DNA of 64,000 nucleotides from Thermoplasmata archaeon (lineage in GTDB: Archaea; Thermoplasmatota; Thermoplasmata; RBG-16-68-12; JAGMCJ01): the NCBI GenBank assembly GCA_046761005.1, contig JBHIFI010000001.1, positions 11,908 to 75,907 of the forward strand, given 5' to 3'. This document shows, one piece after another, positions 122 through 45,213 of this stretch; position 1 is the stretch's first letter, and each line of letters starts with the position of its first letter. Under the pieces are notes generated by a model, which had not been told where the DNA came from, made no database searches, and saw only the letters and a program-made list of their open reading frames with translations. The position numbers and the translations under genes were made by a program.

Positions 122-880
122 GTGAAGCGGATAGTGCTAATCGACCCTAGAGGGAAGAAGAGAATCATCCCGCTCACTGGCGATATTACAAAAGTAGACC
201 GCGTAGGCGTTCTCGACACATCCAAGATTGACGAAAGCACTCTCGGAAAGGAGATCAAGATTGGTGACACCAGATTTCTTGTCCTAGAGCCAAGCCTCCT
301 TGATAAAGTGCAATCAATCAGCAGGAAGGCCCAAATAATCCTGCCTAAGGATGCAGCGCTCATCATAGTCAATTGCGACATCAAACCTGGGAGCATTGTA
401 GTGGAAGGCGGTACAGGTTCTGGCGCACTCACGATTGTCCTGGCGAATTTCGTCCGCCCTAATGGAAAGGTGATATCCTATGAATCAAGAGGGGATTTCC
501 AGAGGATTGCGGGGAAGAACATTGAGAACGCAGGGATGCTCAATCTCTGCTCATTAGTAGAAGGCGACATCACTGAAGGTATCGCTGAAAGAGATGTCGA
601 TGCGATTGTACTAGATATCCCGAACCCGTGGGAAGCAATTGAATTAGCTCATCACGCGCTAAGGCCTGGCGGTTACATCGCGTCTTACGTTCCAACTATG
701 AATCAGGTGGAAAGAACGGTTCGCGAACTTGAGAGATTTCCCTTCATAGAGGTTAGAACCCTCGAGACCTTGGAGAGAGAGATAGAAGTGGGCGATATGG
801 GAACTAGGCCCAGCTTCAAGATGCTCGGCCATACGGGCTACTTAACATTCGCGAGAAAGGTAGCTACAGCTTTTCCGTAG
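122..880 (+). CDS. trmI: tRNA (adenine57/58-N1)-methyltransferase TrmI (Gcd14 family), GTG start
   Basis: Rossmann SAM motif VVEGGTGSGALT; conserved DIPNPWEA segment; size and architecture typical of archaeal TrmI. Confidence 0.8.
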   Translation: MKRIVLIDPRGKKRIIPLTGDITKVDRVGVLDTSKIDESTLGKEIKIGDTRFLVLEPSLLDKVQSISRKAQIILPKDAALIIVNCDIKPGSIVVEGGTGSGALTIVLANFVRPNGKVISYESRGDFQRIAGKNIENAGMLNLCSLVEGDITEGIAERDVDAIVLDIPNPWEAIELAHHALRPGGYIASYVPTMNQVERTVRELERFPFIEVRTLETLEREIEVGDMGTRPSFKMLGHTGYLTFARKVATAFP

Positions 881-31723: not shown

Positions 31724-32848
31724 GTGGTTCCCTTGAAGGAAGAAGGAAACTTCTCAGGTGTAGCGACAAGAATCGTAGGAAACTCTCTGAGAGTGAAGGA
31801 AGACGACATGGTTTGGATAGATACCTGGCATCACACGATTGATTTGGCAAGTGAGATGGCTCTGGAATGCAGGAAGCTCGGAGCGGTTCCTCTGATCACT
31901 CTTGACACCGACGACCTATACGAAAGGACACTCTCTGATGTCCCTCATGAGTTTCTGAGAAAGACACCGAGGCATCACATGAAGGCCCTGGATGAGGTCA
32001 CTGTGAGCATTGCGCTCGCGGGTCCAGAGAATCCTGAGATGTTCAAGAGTGTTGACACTACGAAGATGGCTGCAATAAGAGAAGCCTACAGGCCCGTTGA
32101 GAAGAAGATTATTGACAGGAGCATTAGGGGAGCCTTCGTTACTTTGGGTCTGATTACCCCAGAGAGGGCTTCAGTGTACGGCTTTTCTATCAGGGAATGG
32201 AAACGCGCGGTCAATGAGGCCATCGACGTGGACTACGACAGAATGGCTGAACTGGGGAGAAGGATCGCCAATGTTCTCGCTGGAGCAAGAGAGGTCAGAA
32301 TCAGTTCGGAAAGCGGAACGGATCTCCGCTTTCAGATGGCCGGGCGGAGAGTTCACATTGAGGATGGAATTGTAGACGAAGAAGACGTCACTAGCGGAAG
32401 ACCTTTCACCAACCTTCCCACGGGCTATGTGAGCGTCGCACCCCTTGAGAATAGTGCTGAGGGAAGGGTTCTCTTTGATGCGCCACAGGCTGCACTGGGA
32501 AAGATGATCAAGGACTTGGAGTGGACTTTCGTCGATGGAAGGCTGAAAACCTTCGGGGCAAAGGAGAATATAGAAGCTTTTAGGAGCCTCATGGAGCCCG
32601 GAAAAGGTGAAAAGGACAGGATAGCGCGCTTCAGCATAGGAATAAATCCAAACGCTAGGGTAATCGGTTACTTTGATGATCAGTCCGTCCTGGGATCCGC
32701 CTCCGTAGGAATAGGAGACAATCTCTTCCTGGGCGGAGAGAATGATAGCACTTTCGACTTCGCTGGAACGATACTTCACCCAACTGTGGAAGTGGATGGA
32801 AGGATCATACTGAACAGAGGAAGATTCAGCCTCCAGAATGCGGATTAG
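31724..32848 (+). CDS. M29-family aminopeptidase (AmpS/PepS-like); GTG start, alternative start at MVWIDTWHH (about 31808)
   Basis: 374 aa; thermophilic-metalloprotease M29 architecture with conserved His/Glu/Asp-rich blocks (WHHTIDLASE..., GYVSVAPLE..., IGINPNA). Confidence 0.65.
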   Translation: MVPLKEEGNFSGVATRIVGNSLRVKEDDMVWIDTWHHTIDLASEMALECRKLGAVPLITLDTDDLYERTLSDVPHEFLRKTPRHHMKALDEVTVSIALAGPENPEMFKSVDTTKMAAIREAYRPVEKKIIDRSIRGAFVTLGLITPERASVYGFSIREWKRAVNEAIDVDYDRMAELGRRIANVLAGAREVRISSESGTDLRFQMAGRRVHIEDGIVDEEDVTSGRPFTNLPTGYVSVAPLENSAEGRVLFDAPQAALGKMIKDLEWTFVDGRLKTFGAKENIEAFRSLMEPGKGEKDRIARFSIGINPNARVIGYFDDQSVLGSASVGIGDNLFLGGENDSTFDFAGTILHPTVEVDGRIILNRGRFSLQNAD

Positions 32849-33075
32849 CTAACCTTCTTCTTGGGTCGGCTGCAGACAGCGTACTCATCACCGTCGAAAA
32901 AGACCTCGAGTTCGGGATTCTCTCTCTGAATCTCCTGAATCCTGTCCAAGACATCCTTCAGAGTGATAGAGGGGTCATTCTTATCGATTTTCAGATGAAT
33001 CTTCTTGTCCATTACTATCCCATCCACCCTTTTGCTGAAGGCAGGGAACCCCGGATGACTTCTGGATTTTGCCAT
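32845..33075 (-). CDS. small conserved hypothetical protein
   Basis: 76-aa ORF overlapping the aminopeptidase stop by 4 nt; no recognisable motif. Confidence 0.35.
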   Translation of the reverse strand: MAKSRSHPGFPAFSKRVDGIVMDKKIHLKIDKNDPSITLKDVLDRIQEIQRENPELEVFFDGDEYAVCSRPKKKVS

Positions 33076-33295: not shown

Positions 33296-33360
33296 ATACA
33301 ACCTGTCGACTATGGATGGCGTGCCAGTAGCCACCATAACGCCTCTAGAGGTGCGATATA

Positions 33361-35943
33361 TTGGTAAGCGAAGAGAAGAAGAAGGTTAGTGGAAAAAAGC
33401 ATTCTGCAGATCCAGGTACCTGCGCTGTCTGCGGTGGCCCCTTGAATCCCAAGGGTCAGTGCACCATATGTGGAACCGAATCAAAGGGTGTTCCCGCAGA
33501 ACAAAGAAATCCTGCACCTGCAGATGCCAAGGCCAATCTAGATTCTCCGACCGCCAATGTGAGCGCATCCAAAGGTCCGTCCAGAGAGGAAGCTGTCAAG
33601 CTGTTTTCTAGCATAAAGGGAGTTGGTGAGTCAAAAGCCGAAATCCTCTATGATAGTGGCTATGCCTCTCTGGAGGATCTAAAATCTGCCAAACTGGAGG
33701 ACCTTTCTTCCATAAGTGGTATTGGAGGGAAGTTGGCAGAAACGATATTGAAGAACATCGCAGAACATTCTGGCACAGCAAAGGAAAAAACCGATTCAGA
33801 GGCGCTGTCCAAGTGGCTTTCTGGGGACTCAGATGATGCACTCGGTGTCTGGCTTGGCGGGAGTGTTCCTCAGCAAAAGAAATCGTTGCCGACCGAGGTT
33901 GGTGAGAATTCTGACGACCCAGCTATGCTAGCTCTGCGCAAGTGGCTCACTGGAGAGGAGGACGCTCTTGAGCAGTGGCTCGGTGAGTCGGCGGAGGCTC
34001 CGGTTAGGGAGATTGCTGAGACGAGAGAGCTTCTGGAGAAGCAGCAGATACTCGATGAGAGGGAGACCGAGATTAAGCGCAAGGAGGACCAAGTAGAGGA
34101 CATGAGTATCGAGCTCAAGGAGCTAAAGAAAGCCATAGAAAAGGAGCTTGAGGCGGTCCGAACAGGCAAGTTCGACCCCATGAGATTGATCGAGGAAACC
34201 GCAGAACTCAACAAGAATCTTCAGACCGAGGTCCGCAGGAGAAAGCAACTGGAGGGAGACATTAGTCACCTGAAGAAAGGAACATCGGCGGTTGTCAAAT
34301 ATATGAAGAAGCAGATGGTTCGAAGCGGTAGCCCTGCTCTCAAGAGAAGGCTTTCCGAGGAGAGATCGGTAAGACAGAGGCTTGAAATCGAGCTCAAGAA
34401 GTCTAGAGAGATTGTAGAGAATCTAAAGGATCAGCTTGAAGAGAAGTTGAAAGAGATTCCTGAGGACAAGAGAGCTCTCAAGGAAAAGGAGCTGGTACTA
34501 GTCGAAAAGGAAGCAGAGATAAAGGCAAGGGAGGAGCAGCTTGAAGCGTATGAGCAGGCGATCAAGGGTGGAGAACTCGCTCCCGCCGGAGAAGTCTCCG
34601 AGCACGAACTGGAGTCCAGGCTCCAGGCCGAGCTAAGGGAGAAGGAGAGAGAGTTCCTTGAGAAGGAGGATGATCTGAAGAGGAGAATAATCAAGCTTGA
34701 AGAGGAGATACAGAAACACAGAATCGAGGAAAAGCTGAGAAAGGAAAGCCAAGAACTGCGAAAACTCTCGGCACCCCAGATTGATGAAGTTCTGGTAAGA
34801 AAGGAGAAGGAGCTTCAGGCAAAGGAAAAGTCCATCCTCCTTCGAGGGGAAGAGATTGAAAGACTTAAGGACGAACTCAGAGAAAAGGAAGACGAACTTC
34901 AGAAACTGAGAGAACCCCTATCATATAAGGAAGAAGAGCTCCTCAGAAGAGAGGAAGACCTTCTATACCGCGAAAAGAGACTGGCCGCGGAGAGAAGGAA
35001 GGTTGAGGAAGCAAAGGCTTCTGCTCTTAGCATCGACGAGCATGAGATGAGGCAACGTCTCGAATCCCTCAAAGCGGAGATTGCAAGGAAGGAGGATGAA
35101 GTCAGGGCCAAGGAGAAGTATCTCAAGGCCAAGATGGAGGAACTCCGGCTACGCGAACAGGGCCTAATAGAGGAAGAGATAGATGCCCGGGAAGAGGAGA
35201 GGATGCTAGAGCTAAAGGTAGAGAAGGTGAGGACAGGCACTCCGAGACTCGATGATCTGCTTCTTGGTGGTGTACCGTTTGGTTCCAATATTCTCATCTA
35301 TGGACCTCCCTTTGTAGGGAAAGAGGTCGTCGTGAATGCGTTCATGGCGGAGGGTCTGAAAAAAGGCATTCCGATTGTATGGGTGATAACAGAAAAGATG
35401 CCCTCCGACATAAGGGAAGAGATGGGCTTTGTCATTTCGGGTTATGAAGAGTACGAGAAGCTGGGTCTTGTGAAATACGTGGATTCTTACTCCCGAAGTA
35501 TGGGTGAGGTAGAGGAGGACCCATATACGGTCTATTTGGATGACCCGACTGACTACAAGGCTATCTTGAACGCTGTTGACAAGGTTGCAAAGGAGTTTCT
35601 CAAGAATCACAAGTACTATAGATTGACTTTCAGATCCGTATCTACTCTCATCGCATACCTGGATCCGACTTCCATATTCAAATTCCTTCAGGCTTTCGCG
35701 GGCAGAAGGAAGAGGCACAGGGCTGTCGCACTTTACATGATAGAGAAGGGGATGCACACGGACCAGGAAATCCAGATGATAGGCAGTATGATGGAGGGTA
35801 TGTTCGACTTCAAGGTCGACCAGCTCAAGTCCTTCCTGAGCGTCAAGGGAGTCGGTGATGTTCAGTCAAGGGCATGGATAAAATACACCTACAGCAAGCA
35901 TGGAGTGAGCATCGGGTCCTTCTCGTTGGACCACATCAAGTAG
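33361..35943 (+). CDS. 860-aa multidomain protein: zinc ribbon, 2x helix-hairpin-helix, about 600-aa charged coiled coil, C-terminal KaiC/RecA-like domain with degenerate Walker A; TTG start
   Basis: CAVCGG...CTICG zinc ribbon; HhH motifs IKGVGESKAEIL and ISGIGGKLAETIL; long E/K/R-rich heptad region (about aa 200-620); C-terminus LDDLLLGGVPFGSNILIYGPPFVGKE aligns to the KaiC/RadA N-terminal block but with GPPFVGKE in place of GxxGxGKT. Confidence 0.75.
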   Translation: MVSEEKKKVSGKKHSADPGTCAVCGGPLNPKGQCTICGTESKGVPAEQRNPAPADAKANLDSPTANVSASKGPSREEAVKLFSSIKGVGESKAEILYDSGYASLEDLKSAKLEDLSSISGIGGKLAETILKNIAEHSGTAKEKTDSEALSKWLSGDSDDALGVWLGGSVPQQKKSLPTEVGENSDDPAMLALRKWLTGEEDALEQWLGESAEAPVREIAETRELLEKQQILDERETEIKRKEDQVEDMSIELKELKKAIEKELEAVRTGKFDPMRLIEETAELNKNLQTEVRRRKQLEGDISHLKKGTSAVVKYMKKQMVRSGSPALKRRLSEERSVRQRLEIELKKSREIVENLKDQLEEKLKEIPEDKRALKEKELVLVEKEAEIKAREEQLEAYEQAIKGGELAPAGEVSEHELESRLQAELREKEREFLEKEDDLKRRIIKLEEEIQKHRIEEKLRKESQELRKLSAPQIDEVLVRKEKELQAKEKSILLRGEEIERLKDELREKEDELQKLREPLSYKEEELLRREEDLLYREKRLAAERRKVEEAKASALSIDEHEMRQRLESLKAEIARKEDEVRAKEKYLKAKMEELRLREQGLIEEEIDAREEERMLELKVEKVRTGTPRLDDLLLGGVPFGSNILIYGPPFVGKEVVVNAFMAEGLKKGIPIVWVITEKMPSDIREEMGFVISGYEEYEKLGLVKYVDSYSRSMGEVEEDPYTVYLDDPTDYKAILNAVDKVAKEFLKNHKYYRLTFRSVSTLIAYLDPTSIFKFLQAFAGRRKRHRAVALYMIEKGMHTDQEIQMIGSMMEGMFDFKVDQLKSFLSVKGVGDVQSRAWIKYTYSKHGVSIGSFSLDHIK

Positions 35944-35945
35944 AG

Positions 35946-36365
35946 TCAGGCAACCTCCACGCCCGTACTCTCTCTTGGTTTTCCACCGAACCTTATTGGA
36001 GGAAGCGGAACCGGAGGAGGCAACTTTATGTCCCTTGCAATAACCACTGCTTCAGGAATGCAATTGCTCATTATCGCCTGATGGACCTGCGTAGCGACCT
36101 TGTCAGGCATCTTTCTCTGGGTTCTCCACTGTGTAGCAATCTCCTTGGCATCGCCCTCGTAGATTAGACTTCCCTCAATGGAGATCACCCCCAGTCCCTG
36201 ATAGTTTGCCGTGAATCTGAAATCGATGGCCGCTTCTTTCTTGTTCTTCTCTGTGATCAGGGTTACTGAGCTGTTATGGTCTATCCTAACGTTCGTTGGC
36301 TTCTCTCCCATCTTGTAGAATCGCTTTCCCTCAACGGCCAACAATTCAAAATACTTTATTGGCAT
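35946..36365 (-). CDS. hypothetical protein, convergent with and abutting the coiled-coil gene
   Basis: 139 aa; Pro-rich C-terminal segment (PPPVPLPP); no recognisable motif. Confidence 0.4.
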   Translation of the reverse strand: MPIKYFELLAVEGKRFYKMGEKPTNVRIDHNSSVTLITEKNKKEAAIDFRFTANYQGLGVISIEGSLIYEGDAKEIATQWRTQRKMPDKVATQVHQAIMSNCIPEAVVIARDIKLPPPVPLPPIRFGGKPRESTGVEVA

Positions 36366-42662: not shown

Positions 42663-43061
42663 GTGTTGAATGAGATTCTCCAGAGAAACTTGACAGTCAT
42701 CAGCATTTCGGAGCTGACCGAAGCCCTTAGAAAGACGCTTGGAAAAAAGGGAATGCCCGATAATGAGATATGCAAGCTGGCAGATTATCTGATGTCCTTT
42801 TTTGGATTCAATGATGAGGTGATTGACAACCTCCTCAGCCCTGAGGACAGGGATGTCTTCTACATGCTCGAAGAGGAAGGTCTGCTGACAACAAGAAGAG
42901 AGGAGATCAATCTCAAGAGGGGGAAATTGTGGCGAATACACTACTGGATAATCAAGAAGGACCACATAAAGAGGCTAGCCGCGAAGAAGGAGAAGCAAGA
43001 AGAAGAGGATTACGGAAGCATTTACGACACAATTTCCGAAGAGGTCTGGAGCAGGAACTGA
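42663..43061 (+). CDS. hypothetical protein
   Basis: 132-aa ORF with an acidic/Lys-rich tail; no recognisable motif. Confidence 0.35.
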   Translation: MLNEILQRNLTVISISELTEALRKTLGKKGMPDNEICKLADYLMSFFGFNDEVIDNLLSPEDRDVFYMLEEEGLLTTRREEINLKRGKLWRIHYWIIKKDHIKRLAAKKEKQEEEDYGSIYDTISEEVWSRN

Positions 43062-43120: not shown

Positions 43121-44488
43121 ATGAATGGAACGCTCATATTTCTTTTCATACTCGTTGCATATGGCTTCATTGTCTACCTATTCCACAGAATAAAGCTGTT
43201 TGAAGGCCCCCATCTTTCTCTCTATTTTATCTTCCTAATGTGGAAAACATCCAAGGGGCGGAAGGCCCTGGAGAAGATTGCTAGCCTCAAGAGATTCTGG
43301 AGAGTGTATGGGGATTTCGCCATAGCGATTTGCATCGTCGGGATGTTCGCAATCACTGGTGTCCTTCTCTGGGCTGCCACTTTGGTTCCGTCGATACCCA
43401 AGGGAAGAGTGCCCCCTGTCGAGACAGTGATAGGGATTCCGGGTGTAAATCCATTCATTCCAATAGGCTACGGAATAGTTGCTCTGGTGGTTGCAGTAGT
43501 CATTCATGAATTCTCGCACGGCATACTTACCTACGTTGCTAAGCTCGAGGTATTGAGTCTTGGTATTCTCTTTTTCATAGTTCCTATAGGGGCCTTCGTT
43601 GAACCCGATGAGGAAGGTCTCAAGAAGGTCGACAGAAGAAGCAGATCAAGGCTTTTTGCGGCGGGACCCGCGGCCAACGTCCTCTTTGCTCTGTTATTTT
43701 CGTTTATATTCACATCGTCAATGATGACAAGCATCTCTCCGGTCCACGAAGGTGTCGGAATATATGGTGTTGTGAAGGGATCTCCCGCTGAGGGCAATCT
43801 TACTCCAGGCATGATAATCTTCTCCTTCAATGGGAGCGTCGTTGAGGATCACGAATCCTTCTCCGACGCTGTGTCGAATTCGAGAGCTGGTCAGAATGTC
43901 ACCATCCAGGTTTTCGATGGAGGTAGAATTTCCTCCGTCTATATTACCCTTGCCGATCGTTTCAATTTCACTGAGGTCCCGGAGGATAGTGGCGAGGGCT
44001 ATGTGGGTGTTCAGACTGTCTTCATCTTCACTATCATGGGCACTTCCAGATTCTTGGAAGTGAAGAATGGCCCGGATTTTTACGATCCATTTGCGGATTT
44101 TCGTGATCCGGGCTACTTCGCGGGCTCACTCTTTGCTTATATCGGCCTCCCACTCCTTCGACTTTCTCCATTCCCTGAGTGGTTCACTCAGTTCTATCAA
44201 GTCGAGGGATTCTGGTCCTTCCTTCCCACCGATACCTTTTGGATTCTTGCCAATGTCATCTACTGGGTGTTTTGGCTGAATCTGATGCTTGGCTTGACTA
44301 ATGTCCTCCCGGCCGTTCCCCTAGACGGTGGCTATATCTTTCGGGACGGTTTGGAATCCGTCATGGAGAAGACAAATCCAGACATGGCGCCAGAAAAGAA
44401 AGAGGTCTATGCCAGAAACATATCCTACGCCCTGGCTCTGCTTATACTAGCGCTCATCCTTTGGCAACTCATCGGCCCAAGAATCTAG
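43121..44488 (+). CDS. site-2 protease (M50 family) with PDZ domain
   Basis: HEFSHG zinc motif (HExxH) in a TM helix; PDZ-like segment (VVKGSPAEGNLTPGMIIFSFNG); NVLPAVPLDGG LDG motif; multiple TM helices. Confidence 0.85.
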   Translation: MNGTLIFLFILVAYGFIVYLFHRIKLFEGPHLSLYFIFLMWKTSKGRKALEKIASLKRFWRVYGDFAIAICIVGMFAITGVLLWAATLVPSIPKGRVPPVETVIGIPGVNPFIPIGYGIVALVVAVVIHEFSHGILTYVAKLEVLSLGILFFIVPIGAFVEPDEEGLKKVDRRSRSRLFAAGPAANVLFALLFSFIFTSSMMTSISPVHEGVGIYGVVKGSPAEGNLTPGMIIFSFNGSVVEDHESFSDAVSNSRAGQNVTIQVFDGGRISSVYITLADRFNFTEVPEDSGEGYVGVQTVFIFTIMGTSRFLEVKNGPDFYDPFADFRDPGYFAGSLFAYIGLPLLRLSPFPEWFTQFYQVEGFWSFLPTDTFWILANVIYWVFWLNLMLGLTNVLPAVPLDGGYIFRDGLESVMEKTNPDMAPEKKEVYARNISYALALLILALILWQLIGPRI

Positions 44489-45213
44489 TTGGTCACTATC
44501 TCGAATCCACCATCAACAAAAATGAGCGGGAAATATCCTCTCTTATGTCCTGTCTTTCTCATCTTGACCACGCTCAAGAAGAGGTTGACTATCCTGTCTT
44601 CCCTTCTCAGATCGAGATGAACTATACCATCAGAGAGGAAGTCCTCCCCGTGATCTGCGAATCTATCGGAATCCTGCTTCATTTCAGTGATGAGGAAGGT
44701 GGTGATATCCAGGTCCCTAAGCCACTCGAAGAATCTGAAGAGCTCGTCCCTCGGCTCCTCGAATTTGGCCATCACCTGCAGGACAGGCAAGGAATCTACA
44801 GCAAGAAGGTCGATATCCATGCTCTTTCTCAGATTGTTGACATACATTTTGAAAACCTCTATCCATGATTGTTTTGAAAGCTGCTTCAACTTCTTTCTTA
44901 TCATGGCGAGGTCGAGTAACGACATGTTTTTCTCAAGACCCTTTATGTCCATGCCCATGCCAGCCATATTGTCCAGCATGCTCTCTCTCCCCTGTTCAAG
45001 GGTCACATATGCACCTCCCCGCTCATCCCTCGCGTTGTGGTACAATATGTTGAAGGCTACGGAGGATTTCATCGTTCCAGGCTTTCCAGCAATTAGGACT
45101 ACATGACCTCTTGGGACGCCTCCTTGCAGCTGCTCATCCAGCCCCCTTATGTAGGTCCTCAGTCTGTCTACAGTCATTTGATCCCTTCTGACCACATCCA
45201 CTCTGACGTGCAC
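44485..45213 (-). CDS. KaiC/RadA-like RecA-superfamily ATPase (single domain)
   Basis: LDEQLQGGVPRGHVVLIAGKPGTMKSSVA (KaiC N-terminal block with Walker A GKPGTMKS); Walker B-like LLAVDSL. Confidence 0.75.
   Translation of the reverse strand: MHVRVDVVRRDQMTVDRLRTYIRGLDEQLQGGVPRGHVVLIAGKPGTMKSSVAFNILYHNARDERGGAYVTLEQGRESMLDNMAGMGMDIKGLEKNMSLLDLAMIRKKLKQLSKQSWIEVFKMYVNNLRKSMDIDLLAVDSLPVLQVMAKFEEPRDELFRFFEWLRDLDITTFLITEMKQDSDRFADHGEDFLSDGIVHLDLRREDRIVNLFLSVVKMRKTGHKRGYFPLIFVDGGFEIVTN

Follow-up and report, generated by a model that had tools for sequence, protein, structure and literature searches.

Archaea have few P-loop families as abundant, or as poorly understood, as the KaiC-like proteins. 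Several of these are single-domain ATPases (PH0284, which typifies TIGR03877 'thermo_KaiC_1', PH0186 and SSO2452), and these stand alone and carry a canonical GxxGxGK[ST] loop, a pair of catalytic glutamates (EE) and a Walker B Asp. ArlH (FlaH), the partner of the coiled-coil scaffold ArlX (FlaX) in the archaellum motor, also has canonical Walker A and Walker B motifs and binds ATP. Inactivated KaiC-like domains ('iKaiC') form a recognised class in archaeal signalling proteins, and the fusions mentioned in PMC5847659 (which cites Makarova et al. 2017) join them to REC, HalOD1 and MEDS-type signalling domains and come for the most part from haloarchaea and methanogens. Three further groups invite comparison. 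SMC, Rad50 and RecN are DNA-binding proteins in which long helical arms are joined to P-loop-type heads, the heads being of the ABC type and split between the N- and C-termini, and the arms, which have a hinge or zinc hook, running antiparallel over 2 x 250-500 aa; in archaeal RadA an N-terminal (HhH)2 domain is followed immediately by an active recombinase core of the RecA superfamily; and the Elp4/5/6 ring of Elongator is eukaryotic and heterohexameric, and has neither stalk nor anchor.

The protein considered here, of 860 residues, is encoded in a window of 64,000 nucleotides (the whole stretch of DNA that was analysed) from an uncultured Thermoplasmata archaeon, and it consists of an N-terminal region of 220 residues, a helical stalk of 400 and a C-terminal head of 240 (Table 1). 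The individual domains are all of known kinds. With iKaiC domains and with Pfam DUF7504 and DUF7090 the head shares the KaiC fold, the disrupted catalytic motifs and the use of a non-catalytic module fused to other domains; unlike these, it is found behind a zinc ribbon, HhH, Trp-Leu (WL) motifs and a stalk, or in relatives behind a transmembrane (TM) domain and a stalk, and no description of either architecture was found in the literature searched, PMC5847659 included.

Table 1. Features of the 860-residue protein, its gene and the genes near it (positions are those of the window; residues are those of the protein)
Feature	Positions	Strand	Residues	Remarks
Conserved divergent upstream neighbour, 76 aa	32845..33075	-		core ~55 aa; 42 loci, 4 clusters
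GAGGTG, Shine-Dalgarno-like site	33348..33353	+		7 nt before TTG start; read from sequence
ORF of 860 aa	33361..35943	+	1-860	TTG start; zinc ribbon, (HhH)2, twin WL motifs, helical stalk, inactivated KaiC head
Zinc ribbon	33415..33480	+	19-40	C21-x2-C24-x9-C34-x2-C37; read from sequence
(HhH)2 domain	33583..33771	+	75-137	G-h-G hairpins both intact here (GVG, GIG)
WL motif 1	33796..33858	+	146-166	ALSKWLSGDSDDALGVWLGG; W152, W164 at least 90% conserved
WL motif 2	33925..33987	+	189-209	ALRKWLTGEEDALEQWLGE; W195, L196, W206 invariant (64 sequences)
Segmented alpha-helical stalk	34021..35220	+	221-620	~400 aa; AF2 secondary structure
Distal stalk	34912..35220	+	518-620	begins at near-invariant EPLxYKE motif; 112 aa to head
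Inactivated KaiC/RecA-fold head (iKaiC)	35221..35940	+	621-860
Degenerate Walker A	35302..35325	+	648-655	GPPFVGKE; aligned with GGPGTGKT of PH0284
Walker B position	35617..35646	+	753-762	YRLTFRSVST; Arg758 for Asp; aligned with RVVVDSVTTL of PH0284
Conserved convergent neighbour, 139 aa	35946..36365	-		SecB-like predicted fold; candidate partner or chaperone
Canonical KaiC-like ATPase, 242 aa	44485..45213			8.5 kb from the 860-aa gene; PF06745 E 2e-42

The gene and its family

Orthologues of the protein (42-85% identity) belong to a widespread family whose members occur in the genomes of 246 GTDB species and, at E <= 1e-30, fall into 252 clusters at 50% identity, so the ORF is not a product of chance. 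It is real, and its start falls at the same position as the starts of its homologues; one sequence retrieved (P0001) is 100% identical to it. Among the matches listed (80 of the 246) all come from metagenome-assembled genomes of uncultured Thermoplasmatota, one of which is labelled Omnitrophota. The gene lies on the chromosome among metabolic and translation genes, and the family evolves slowly, at about the rate of enolase or purM when the same loci are compared, a setting that gives the gene a housekeeping character. A role in defence was considered and rejected, since a PADLOC search returned no significant match (the sole hit was mad8, E 0.0099, 13.4 bits).

Only generic names are attached to the family in the databases ('ATPase domain-containing protein', 'KaiC/GvpD/RAD55 family', 'recombinase RecA' and, for one relative at NCBI, 'DUF7504 family protein'). 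A literature search found no paper on the family, nor on DUF7504, DUF7090, DUF7125 or an architecture combining KaiC, a coiled coil and HhH. The first-pass annotation, made from the sequence alone, had not recognised a characterised family here, and this judgement holds: by profile score and architecture the protein gives no SMC-like signal and is neither an ArlH nor a RadA, and the family is uncharacterised and conserved in uncultured Thermoplasmata archaea.

Head, stalk and N-terminal region

Profile and fold searches identify the C-terminal 240 residues as a complete KaiC/RecA fold (Pfam PF06745, E 1e-13; PH0284, 2dr3, E 1.7e-13 by sequence), in agreement with the KaiC-like domain that the first-pass annotation had placed there. 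Pfam DUF7504 matches residues 641-810 at 42.6 bits against a gathering threshold of 27, over profile positions 1-172 of 179, and by these profile matches the head is an iKaiC / DUF7504 domain. None of its NCBIfam scores comes anywhere near the equivalog cut-offs for KaiC, ArlH or RadA, with 64.8 bits against 307 for TIGR03877 and 30.7 against 194 for the ArlH/FlaH model PRK06067; the RadA models match the HhH region only, at 25.3 and 23.7 bits where 259 and 361 are needed. In the fold comparison the head is closer to KaiC than to RadA, and PH0284, SSO2452, KaiC and FlaH are all structurally closer to it than is Elp4.

The active site has been altered at several positions. The Walker A loop had been read as degenerate; that reading stands for its last residue, the remainder of the loop still fitting GxxxxGK, so that only the final Ser/Thr has been replaced. 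Residue 655 is Glu in 63 of 64 aligned members and Asp in one, and across 151 sequences the eighth Walker A residue is Glu in 143, Asp in seven and Arg in one, and is never Ser or Thr. At the Walker B position Arg758 is found in 64/64 aligned full-length members, none of which has Asp; in a pattern search Arg occupies it in 125 of 140 sequences and Asp was matched in none, the pattern having missed one 241-aa relative (P0191) that reads LVFDSVSTL. The replacement of the Walker B Asp by Arg758, the stronger of the two lesions, had been passed over in the first-pass annotation. The catalytic EE of PH0284 aligns to E678-K679, and all members have [DE]K there; G648, G653, K654, K679 and R758 are invariant in the 64 full-length members. 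Where PH0284-type proteins present GxxGxGK[ST], EE and Asp in a free-standing domain, this head has GK-E, [DE]K and Arg and follows an anchor and a stalk that together take up 620 residues.

Judged from these residues the head is almost certainly catalytically dead, and the earlier prediction of weak or absent ATPase activity is strengthened by Glu or Asp in 150 of the 151 Walker A sequences and by Arg758. The Mg ion of P-loop NTPases lies between the hydroxyl of Walker A and the carboxylate of Walker B, and Glu655 and Arg758 could therefore pair directly and fill the site. That the GxxxxGK-E loop and [DE]678 are strictly invariant suggests a pocket that still binds something, perhaps a nucleotide, and 'dead' is therefore meant of hydrolysis and not necessarily of ligand binding.

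The region between the N-terminal domains and the head had been described as a coiled coil of roughly 600 residues, which our delimitation reduces to about 400 (residues ~221-620). AF2 splits it into eight helices of 10-83 residues (221-267, 273-321, 325-364, 368-402, 414-468, 471-553, 558-609 and 611-620), the breaks coinciding with conserved Pro/Gly sites. Its composition is 42-65% E/K/R/D/Q, with a heptad-like hydrophobic periodicity. The spacing from EPLxYKE to the head is 112 aa (113 in two) in all of the ~65 members in which both motifs were found, and conservation in the distal stalk (0.78-0.80) matches that in the head (0.79). The last ~100 residues of the stalk and the head form one highly conserved, indel-free module.

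The N-terminal zinc ribbon and two HhH motifs recognised at first pass are both borne out. The four Cys of the ribbon are at least 90% conserved (alignment A1), a CxxC..CxxC match is present in every locus with the 5' end of the gene on the contig, one relative (P0060) matches Pfam Zn_ribbon_3, and AF2 models short strands here at a pLDDT of ~70. Pfam HHH_5 matches residues 81-131 with E 4e-12, HHH_2 and HHH match as well, RadA and L32e show similarity here through their own HhH regions, and AF2 gives the domain a pLDDT of ~80. The N-terminus is accordingly of a kind predicted to bind DNA. About half of the aligned full-length members (~37/64) have the HhH domain and ~40% are missing it, and in many of the other orthologues the GhG hairpins are degenerate. 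The first WL motif, which matches no Pfam family, is kept in members without HhH.

What lies upstream of the conserved module varies among lineages. Soluble members have the zinc ribbon and the twin Trp-Leu motifs, about half of them with HhH, and in a sister clade the whole N-terminus is replaced by a polytopic membrane domain: in P0075-77 and another 26 representatives, the TM-anchored relatives, 4-7 hydrophobic helices are followed by a stalk of 410-495 aa and the same GK-E head, and the neighbourhoods examined for such relatives (L081, L082) have no gene in common with the locus of the 860-aa gene. In a single fusion the head is C-terminal to HD-CE and nSTAND1 domains, and weak matches to MEDS, an inactive KaiC-like sensor, occur in relatives. 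A search with the head only also returned 'short' stand-alone relatives, which we do not take as a separate architecture since at least one of them (P0173) is fragmentary: frameshifts in a long-read contig (L083) have cut up the full-length gene to which it belongs.

Scaffold, adaptor or enzyme

With its catalytic residues lost, the protein is most likely a scaffold and not an enzyme. The specific form that we propose, and to which we give somewhat less than even credence, is a non-enzymatic arrangement of anchor, stalk and head built on an inactivated KaiC domain. The head would be unable to hydrolyse ATP, its Mg site perhaps occupied by the Glu655-Arg758 pair, and would serve as a platform for binding and oligomerisation; it may form rings, as other single-domain KaiC proteins do, or dock onto active KaiC-type ATPases. 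The stalk of ~400 residues would dimerise or bundle and so set a fixed spacing. Localisation of the assembly would fall to the N-terminus: in the 860-aa protein a basic tail, the zinc ribbon and (HhH)2 would attach it to nucleic acid, and the twin Trp-Leu motifs might recruit a further partner, whereas in the sister clade it would be attached to the membrane. The first-pass annotation had proposed a DNA-tethered scaffold or pseudo-ATPase; the scaffold is still the best reading, and DNA tethering is not a constant of the family because HhH is missing in ~40% of members, its hairpins are often degenerate and the sister clade is membrane-anchored. The scaffold might serve in nucleoid organisation, as a hub of KaiC signalling or in some other process; a role in chromosome segregation or repair is pure conjecture.

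A plausible dedicated chaperone or partner for such a scaffold may be encoded next to it. The 139-aa gene adjoins the 860-aa gene in 56/80 loci and in seven of nine sequence clusters, including the most divergent, the adjacency having been lost in two. Its product has no sequence match in profile searches of Pfam, NCBIfam or the PDB; its AF2 model (pLDDT 82.8, pTM 0.72) is matched by Foldseek to the SecB-like chaperone Rv1957 (5mtw, E 2.7e-4, TM 0.58-0.61) and to E. coli SecB (TM 0.53-0.56). We draw the link between the two proteins from their conserved convergent adjacency and not from co-transcription, and that the SecB-fold protein is a dedicated chaperone or partner is plausible on this basis. 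In the 76-aa neighbour on the other side the motif DVFFDGDEYAVCSRP is invariant, and profile searches of the same three libraries gave no match to it.

The alternative that fares best, which we nevertheless think unlikely, is that the protein is a pseudo-subunit or adaptor of the archaeal KaiC signalling network, its dead head co-assembling with active ATPases of the KaiC-like kind (the 242-aa protein, for example) and coupling them to DNA or to the membrane. This would be a special case of the scaffold explanation, with which it overlaps. The gene of a canonical KaiC-like ATPase 8.5 kb away, the weak MEDS matches, the one relative in which a STAND NTPase carries the head at its sensor end and the iKaiC domains known in signalling architectures (PMC5847659) are all consistent with such a role. 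Against it, the 242-aa gene is at the equivalent position only in the closest relatives (at least 58% identity), an S2P protease gene being followed directly by a GNAT gene, without the KaiC gene between them, in four loci (L021, L026, L028 and L040); none of the sequence clusters has a KaiC-like gene among its conserved neighbours; and hhalign of the family with the 242-aa protein aligns 41 columns, around Walker A only. Gene order is therefore no evidence of partnership, and the suggestion of the first-pass annotation that the 242-aa protein could be the active partner was rejected, since synteny lends it no support. The conserved neighbours also include no genes of the archaellum or of type IV pili, and none of the neighbourhoods examined contains an arl gene.

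It is improbable that the head is an active, unorthodox ATPase or autokinase in which Glu655 takes over Mg coordination or catalysis and which works as a motor or clock-like switch on the stalk. The pocket is strongly constrained, with invariant P-loop glycines and Lys654 and an acidic residue kept at the first catalytic-Glu position ([DE]678), as such an enzyme would require; set against this are the positively charged Arg in place of the Walker B Asp in every full-length member, Lys679 in place of the second catalytic Glu, the lack of Ser or Thr in Walker A in any of the 151 sequences retrieved and the equivalog scores given above. We know of no P-loop NTPase with the Ser/Thr to Glu and Asp to Arg pair that is active.

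We give just as little weight to an SMC/Rad50-like machine for chromosome organisation or repair, in which the arms would fold back and the DNA-binding N-terminus and RecA-like head would clamp DNA. The first-pass annotation had compared the stalk to SMC or Rad50 arms, and the N-terminal zinc ribbon and (HhH)2, the variable Gly/Pro loop near the middle of the helical region (residues 403-413) and the position of a homologue of the gene ~1 kb from orc1/cdc6 in one clade could be taken in its favour. The comparison finds no support on closer inspection, as the stalk is 400 aa long and broken into at least eight helices, and one KaiC fold makes up the whole head: profile searches and the AF2 model reveal no ABC-type split head, signature motif or zinc hook, and residues 221-620 contain no Cys and no hinge domain by sequence. 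Covariation along the stalk (APC-corrected mutual information for residues 215-625 in 105 non-redundant sequences, Neff ~65, summed along antidiagonals) gave nothing at i+j~816, where a hairpin that turned at the loop should show itself, though at this Neff we give the result little weight; two weak peaks, at ~1124 and ~587 (z~5), do not exceed the helix signal at i+14 (z~8), which is local. One relative (P0073) is missing ~60 residues of the first half of the stalk without a compensating deletion in the second, which leaves the halves unequal. HhH is dispensable in ~40% of members, TM-anchored relatives exist, and the match of SMC_prok_B to the coil (E 0.075 only) is due to coiled-coil composition. 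The likeness to RadA is also limited, in that 480 residues separate (HhH)2 from the RecA-type domain in the 860-aa protein.

Least probable of all is an Elp456-like RNA-binding ring that aids tRNA wobble-base modification, since Elp3 is adjacent in one sequence cluster only, and therefore by one event, TiaS in three related clusters only, the PAXNEB (Elp4) match covers residues 624-688 alone, four KaiC-type structures are closer to the head than Elp4, and Elongator has nothing that corresponds to the 400-aa stalk or to the membrane-anchored relatives.

Meaning for the Thermoplasmatota

In the course of its evolution this family has fixed a pair of active-site changes, Ser/Thr to Glu and Asp to Arg, and has joined the resulting dead domain to a fixed-length stalk whose anchor, to DNA or to the membrane, can be exchanged. 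Its domains are all of known kinds, so the surprise of the finding is limited; the 860-aa protein and the adjacent SecB-fold protein offer a concrete pair for testing. A bolder extension, which we consider unlikely as a whole, is that the GK-E/Arg head and the length-invariant distal stalk mark an undescribed organising class in archaea, with DNA- and membrane-anchored forms, ring-forming heads on stalks of ~60 nm, a nucleoid- or envelope-associated scaffold and a dedicated SecB-fold chaperone. If true, this would be a new cytoskeleton-like or tethering system in the Thermoplasmatota, something beyond a signalling accessory. Should the scaffold reading by itself be right, the family would provide a clear natural case of a P-loop ATPase turned into a structural module, and its study could reveal an organising system in a large group of uncultured archaea.

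Architecture and the altered KaiC-like head

The 860-aa protein was modelled with AF2 from a 64-sequence alignment (mean pLDDT 74, pTM 0.40), and its parts are listed with the neighbouring genes in the table below. The zinc ribbon and HhH motifs proposed for its N-terminus in the first-pass annotation are borne out by a conserved four-Cys pattern, seen in the sequence as C21-x2-C24-x9-C34-x2-C37, and by the Pfam match to HHH_5; the C-terminal domain likewise aligns with KaiC in profile searches and reaches the Pfam threshold for DUF7504. The top NCBIfam match, thermo_KaiC_1, scores 64.8 bits, far under its 307-bit cut-off. A motif repeated in both of the short helical pairs, A-L-x-K-W-L-x-G-E-x3-5-L-x-x-W-L-G, matches no Pfam family, has invariant or nearly invariant Trp residues and is also kept in members that lack HhH. 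The breaks in the stalk fall at conserved Pro/Gly sites such as 'FDP', 'KKGSxAVIKYVK' and 'EPLxYKEEE'.

Features of the 860-aa protein and its surroundings (nucleotide positions in the window; aa, residues of the protein)
Feature	Position	Strand	Remarks
55-76-aa gene	32845..33075	-	divergent, upstream; in 42/80 related loci
GAGGTG site	7 nt 5' of TTG start	+	read from sequence
860-aa ORF	33361..35943	+	TTG start; homologues share same start position
139-aa gene	35946..36365	-	convergent, directly downstream; in 56/80 related loci
DUF6015 protein	42663..43061	+	
242-aa KaiC-like ATPase	44485..45213	-	canonical, single-domain; PF06745 E 2e-42
Basic tail	aa 1-18		disordered; AF2
Zinc ribbon	aa 19-40		AF2
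Linker	aa 41-72		disordered; AF2
(HhH)2	aa 75-137		AF2
HHH_5 match	aa 81-131		Pfam, E 4e-12
Two short helical pairs	aa 139-164, 187-206		AF2
Stalk, eight helices	aa 221-267, 273-321, 325-364, 368-402, 414-468, 471-553, 558-609, 611-620		AF2
Head, alpha/beta domain	aa 621-860		AF2
KaiC PF06745 match	aa 623-796		Pfam, E 1e-13
DUF7504 match	aa 641-810		Pfam, E 1e-10
AGRRKR loop	aa 780-785 (nt ~35698-35715)	+	

In HMMER alignments with the single-domain archaeal KaiC-like ATPase PH0284 (2dr3), the sequences GPPFVGKE (the P-loop as first reported), VITEKMP and YRLTFRSVSTL align with GGPGTGKT, VALEEHP and KRVVVDSVTTL, respectively. Among 64 aligned full-length members, G648, G653, K654, K679 and R758 are invariant, residue 655 is Glu in 63 and Asp in one, and residue 678 is Asp or Glu in 63. 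In the 197 family sequences then retrieved, the eighth residue of Walker A is E (143), D (7) or R (1) and never S or T, and of 140 residues read at the Walker B position 125 are R, the others being L, M, V, K, E or Q; the search pattern matched no Asp there but missed a 241-aa relative (P0191) that reads LVFDSVSTL. Walker A has thus lost its metal-binding hydroxyl and Walker B its carboxylate, one catalytic Glu is missing as well, and all three replacements are fixed, so that the earlier term 'degenerate P-loop', correct in that the P-loop is altered, understates the change. Since the Walker A Ser/Thr and Walker B Asp of P-loop NTPases lie on either side of the Mg ion, Glu655 presumably pairs with Arg758. 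An active ATPase of an unorthodox kind is one rival reading of the protein. The head also contains an invariant basic loop, AGRRKR, that is predicted to be flexible (pLDDT < 50).

Family extent and exchange of the N-terminal anchor

A full-length search recovered 77 relatives, mostly of 730-980 aa with the order of parts unchanged and one identical to the window protein; the named ones belong to MAGs of uncultured Thermoplasmata, Thermoplasmatota or 'Methanomassiliicoccales'. Scanning one genome per GTDB species placed relatives in 246 genomes, and the best 80 of these were all uncultured MAGs of the same types, one labelled 'Omnitrophota bacterium'. This gene, elsewhere archaeal, has a 53%-identical copy on a chromosome labelled 'Candidatus Omnitrophota bacterium' (CP070807.1, locus L055), where the next gene encodes a T2SSE ATPase that includes a PilZ domain; the record may be taxonomically mislabelled or come from a chimeric bin. 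Among 1.84 billion cluster representatives a profile search matched 252 at E <= 1e-30 (701 at E <= 1e-10), with the KaiC-like domain C-terminal in almost all (P0380 is an exception). In shared loci the protein is conserved to about the degree of enolase and PurM (in L006, 60-61% versus 62% and 61%), an unusual level for a protein with coiled coil over half its length. On one long-read contig (L083, 6454-8798) the gene is spread over three reading frames, which makes the 265-aa database protein P0173 a fragment; in this copy Walker A reads GK-D and the Walker B residue is Glu (FESVST). Short 'stand-alone' matches among database proteins call for caution.

In essentially all members the head starts 112 residues from EPLxYKE (aa 518), and the majority-residue frequency is 0.78-0.80 in this distal stalk versus 0.79 in the head. 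The regions before it vary more. A CxxC...CxxC match occurs in every locus that has the 5' gene end on the contig, HhH occurs in ~37 of 64 members, and canonical G-h-G hairpins are rarer still. In a sister group with 31-32% identity (P0075-P0077 and 26 further representatives; 850-970 aa) the N-terminus is wholly replaced by 4-7 hydrophobic, transmembrane helices, followed by a coiled-coil stalk of 410-495 aa and a GK-E head as in the 860-aa protein, with Met or Leu at the Walker B position; the neighbourhoods of its genes (L081, 10001-12886; L082, 2590-5427) are unrelated to the locus described here. The 1257-aa protein P0379 has an HD-CE domain and an nSTAND1 NTPase, then a dead KaiC head (GPPFCGKQ). 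The sensor domain of STAND proteins is usually C-terminal, and the head thus occupies its place. Across these sequences the family combines an interchangeable anchor with a stalk of similar length and a constant head.

Genomic neighbours and possible partners

The window is ordinary chromosome (purL/purM, urocanase, acyl-CoA metabolism, TiaS, enolase, ribosomal protein S2, aIF5B, NreA), and the one PADLOC match to defence genes, mad8 (E 0.0099, 13.4 bits), is not significant. We compared 80 related loci, grouped into nine clusters by stalk and head identity, and two small genes keep their place beside the 860-aa gene most often. The 139-aa and 860-aa genes have their stop codons 2 nt apart, and seven of the nine clusters keep them adjacent, the most divergent cluster (43% identity) among them. 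The 139-aa product has 605 homologues, of which the 120 listed carry no Pfam domain and no name beyond 'hypothetical protein', and no sequence match in Pfam, NCBIfam or PDB. Its AF2 model (pLDDT 82.8, pTM 0.72; four strands, two helices) resembles SecB-type chaperones (Rv1957, 5mtw, E 2.7e-4, TM ~0.6; E. coli SecB, TM ~0.55), with an invariant PPPxPxP tail after this fold, and the protein is therefore a candidate chaperone or partner. The upstream protein has a conserved core of ~55 aa with the invariant motif DVFFDGDEYAVCSRP and matched nothing in any library searched.

A pseudo-subunit in a KaiC network is another rival reading. The 242-aa KaiC (Walker A GKPGTMKS, Walker B LLAVDS), proposed earlier as a possible active partner, is unsupported in that role: it keeps its position only in relatives at least 58% identical and is missing from that position in L021, L026, L028 and L040. 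Its gene stop overlaps the end of the S2P protease gene.

An Elp456-like tRNA factor, a further rival, touches on Elp3 and TiaS, which both modify tRNA position 34. TiaS follows in 33 of the 80 loci, restricted to three related clusters, and Elp3 is the divergent upstream neighbour in ten loci of a single cluster (L033, L035, L041-L044, L047, L049, L058 and L061; for example L044, 8060-9628 - and 13266-14441 +). Six of the ten also have a PIN plus zinc-ribbon gene, DUF6015 and orc1/cdc6 downstream, orc1/cdc6 at ~1 kb. This arrangement, confined to one cluster, counts as a single evolutionary event and is only a weak lead. DUF6015 turns up close to the gene in 21 loci, arranged in two distinct ways, and adjoins orc1/cdc6 in the Elp3 clade.

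A proposed non-catalytic scaffold

An SMC-like machine, also a rival reading, finds no support, and the coil likened to SMC/Rad50 arms at ~600 residues is a charged helical region from aa ~221 to ~620, about 400 residues; apart from this length the earlier observation was essentially right. Each type of domain here is a known one, and the inactivated KaiC-like domains called 'iKaiC' form a described class among the domains of archaeal signalling proteins (PMC5847659). We found no literature description of the conserved architecture, its Glu/Arg active-site replacement, the fixed-length stalk, the membrane-anchored sister group or the SecB-fold neighbour.

The best-supported reading is a non-catalytic scaffold of anchor, stalk and head. 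In it the fold, the missing catalytic residues, the modular pattern of conservation and the swapping of anchors are demonstrated; oligomeric state, DNA binding, the identity of partners and the process served are inferences. The DNA-tethered scaffold or pseudo-ATPase first proposed is reasonable as a pseudo-ATPase scaffold, but DNA tethering is not a family invariant. The head would provide KaiC-type oligomerisation and a binding surface, with ATP turnover lost; the conserved distal stalk would belong to the head module and the remaining stalk would set distance, and the N-terminus would localise the assembly, which in the window's lineage would mean to nucleic acid, presumably DNA, and in the sister lineage to the membrane.
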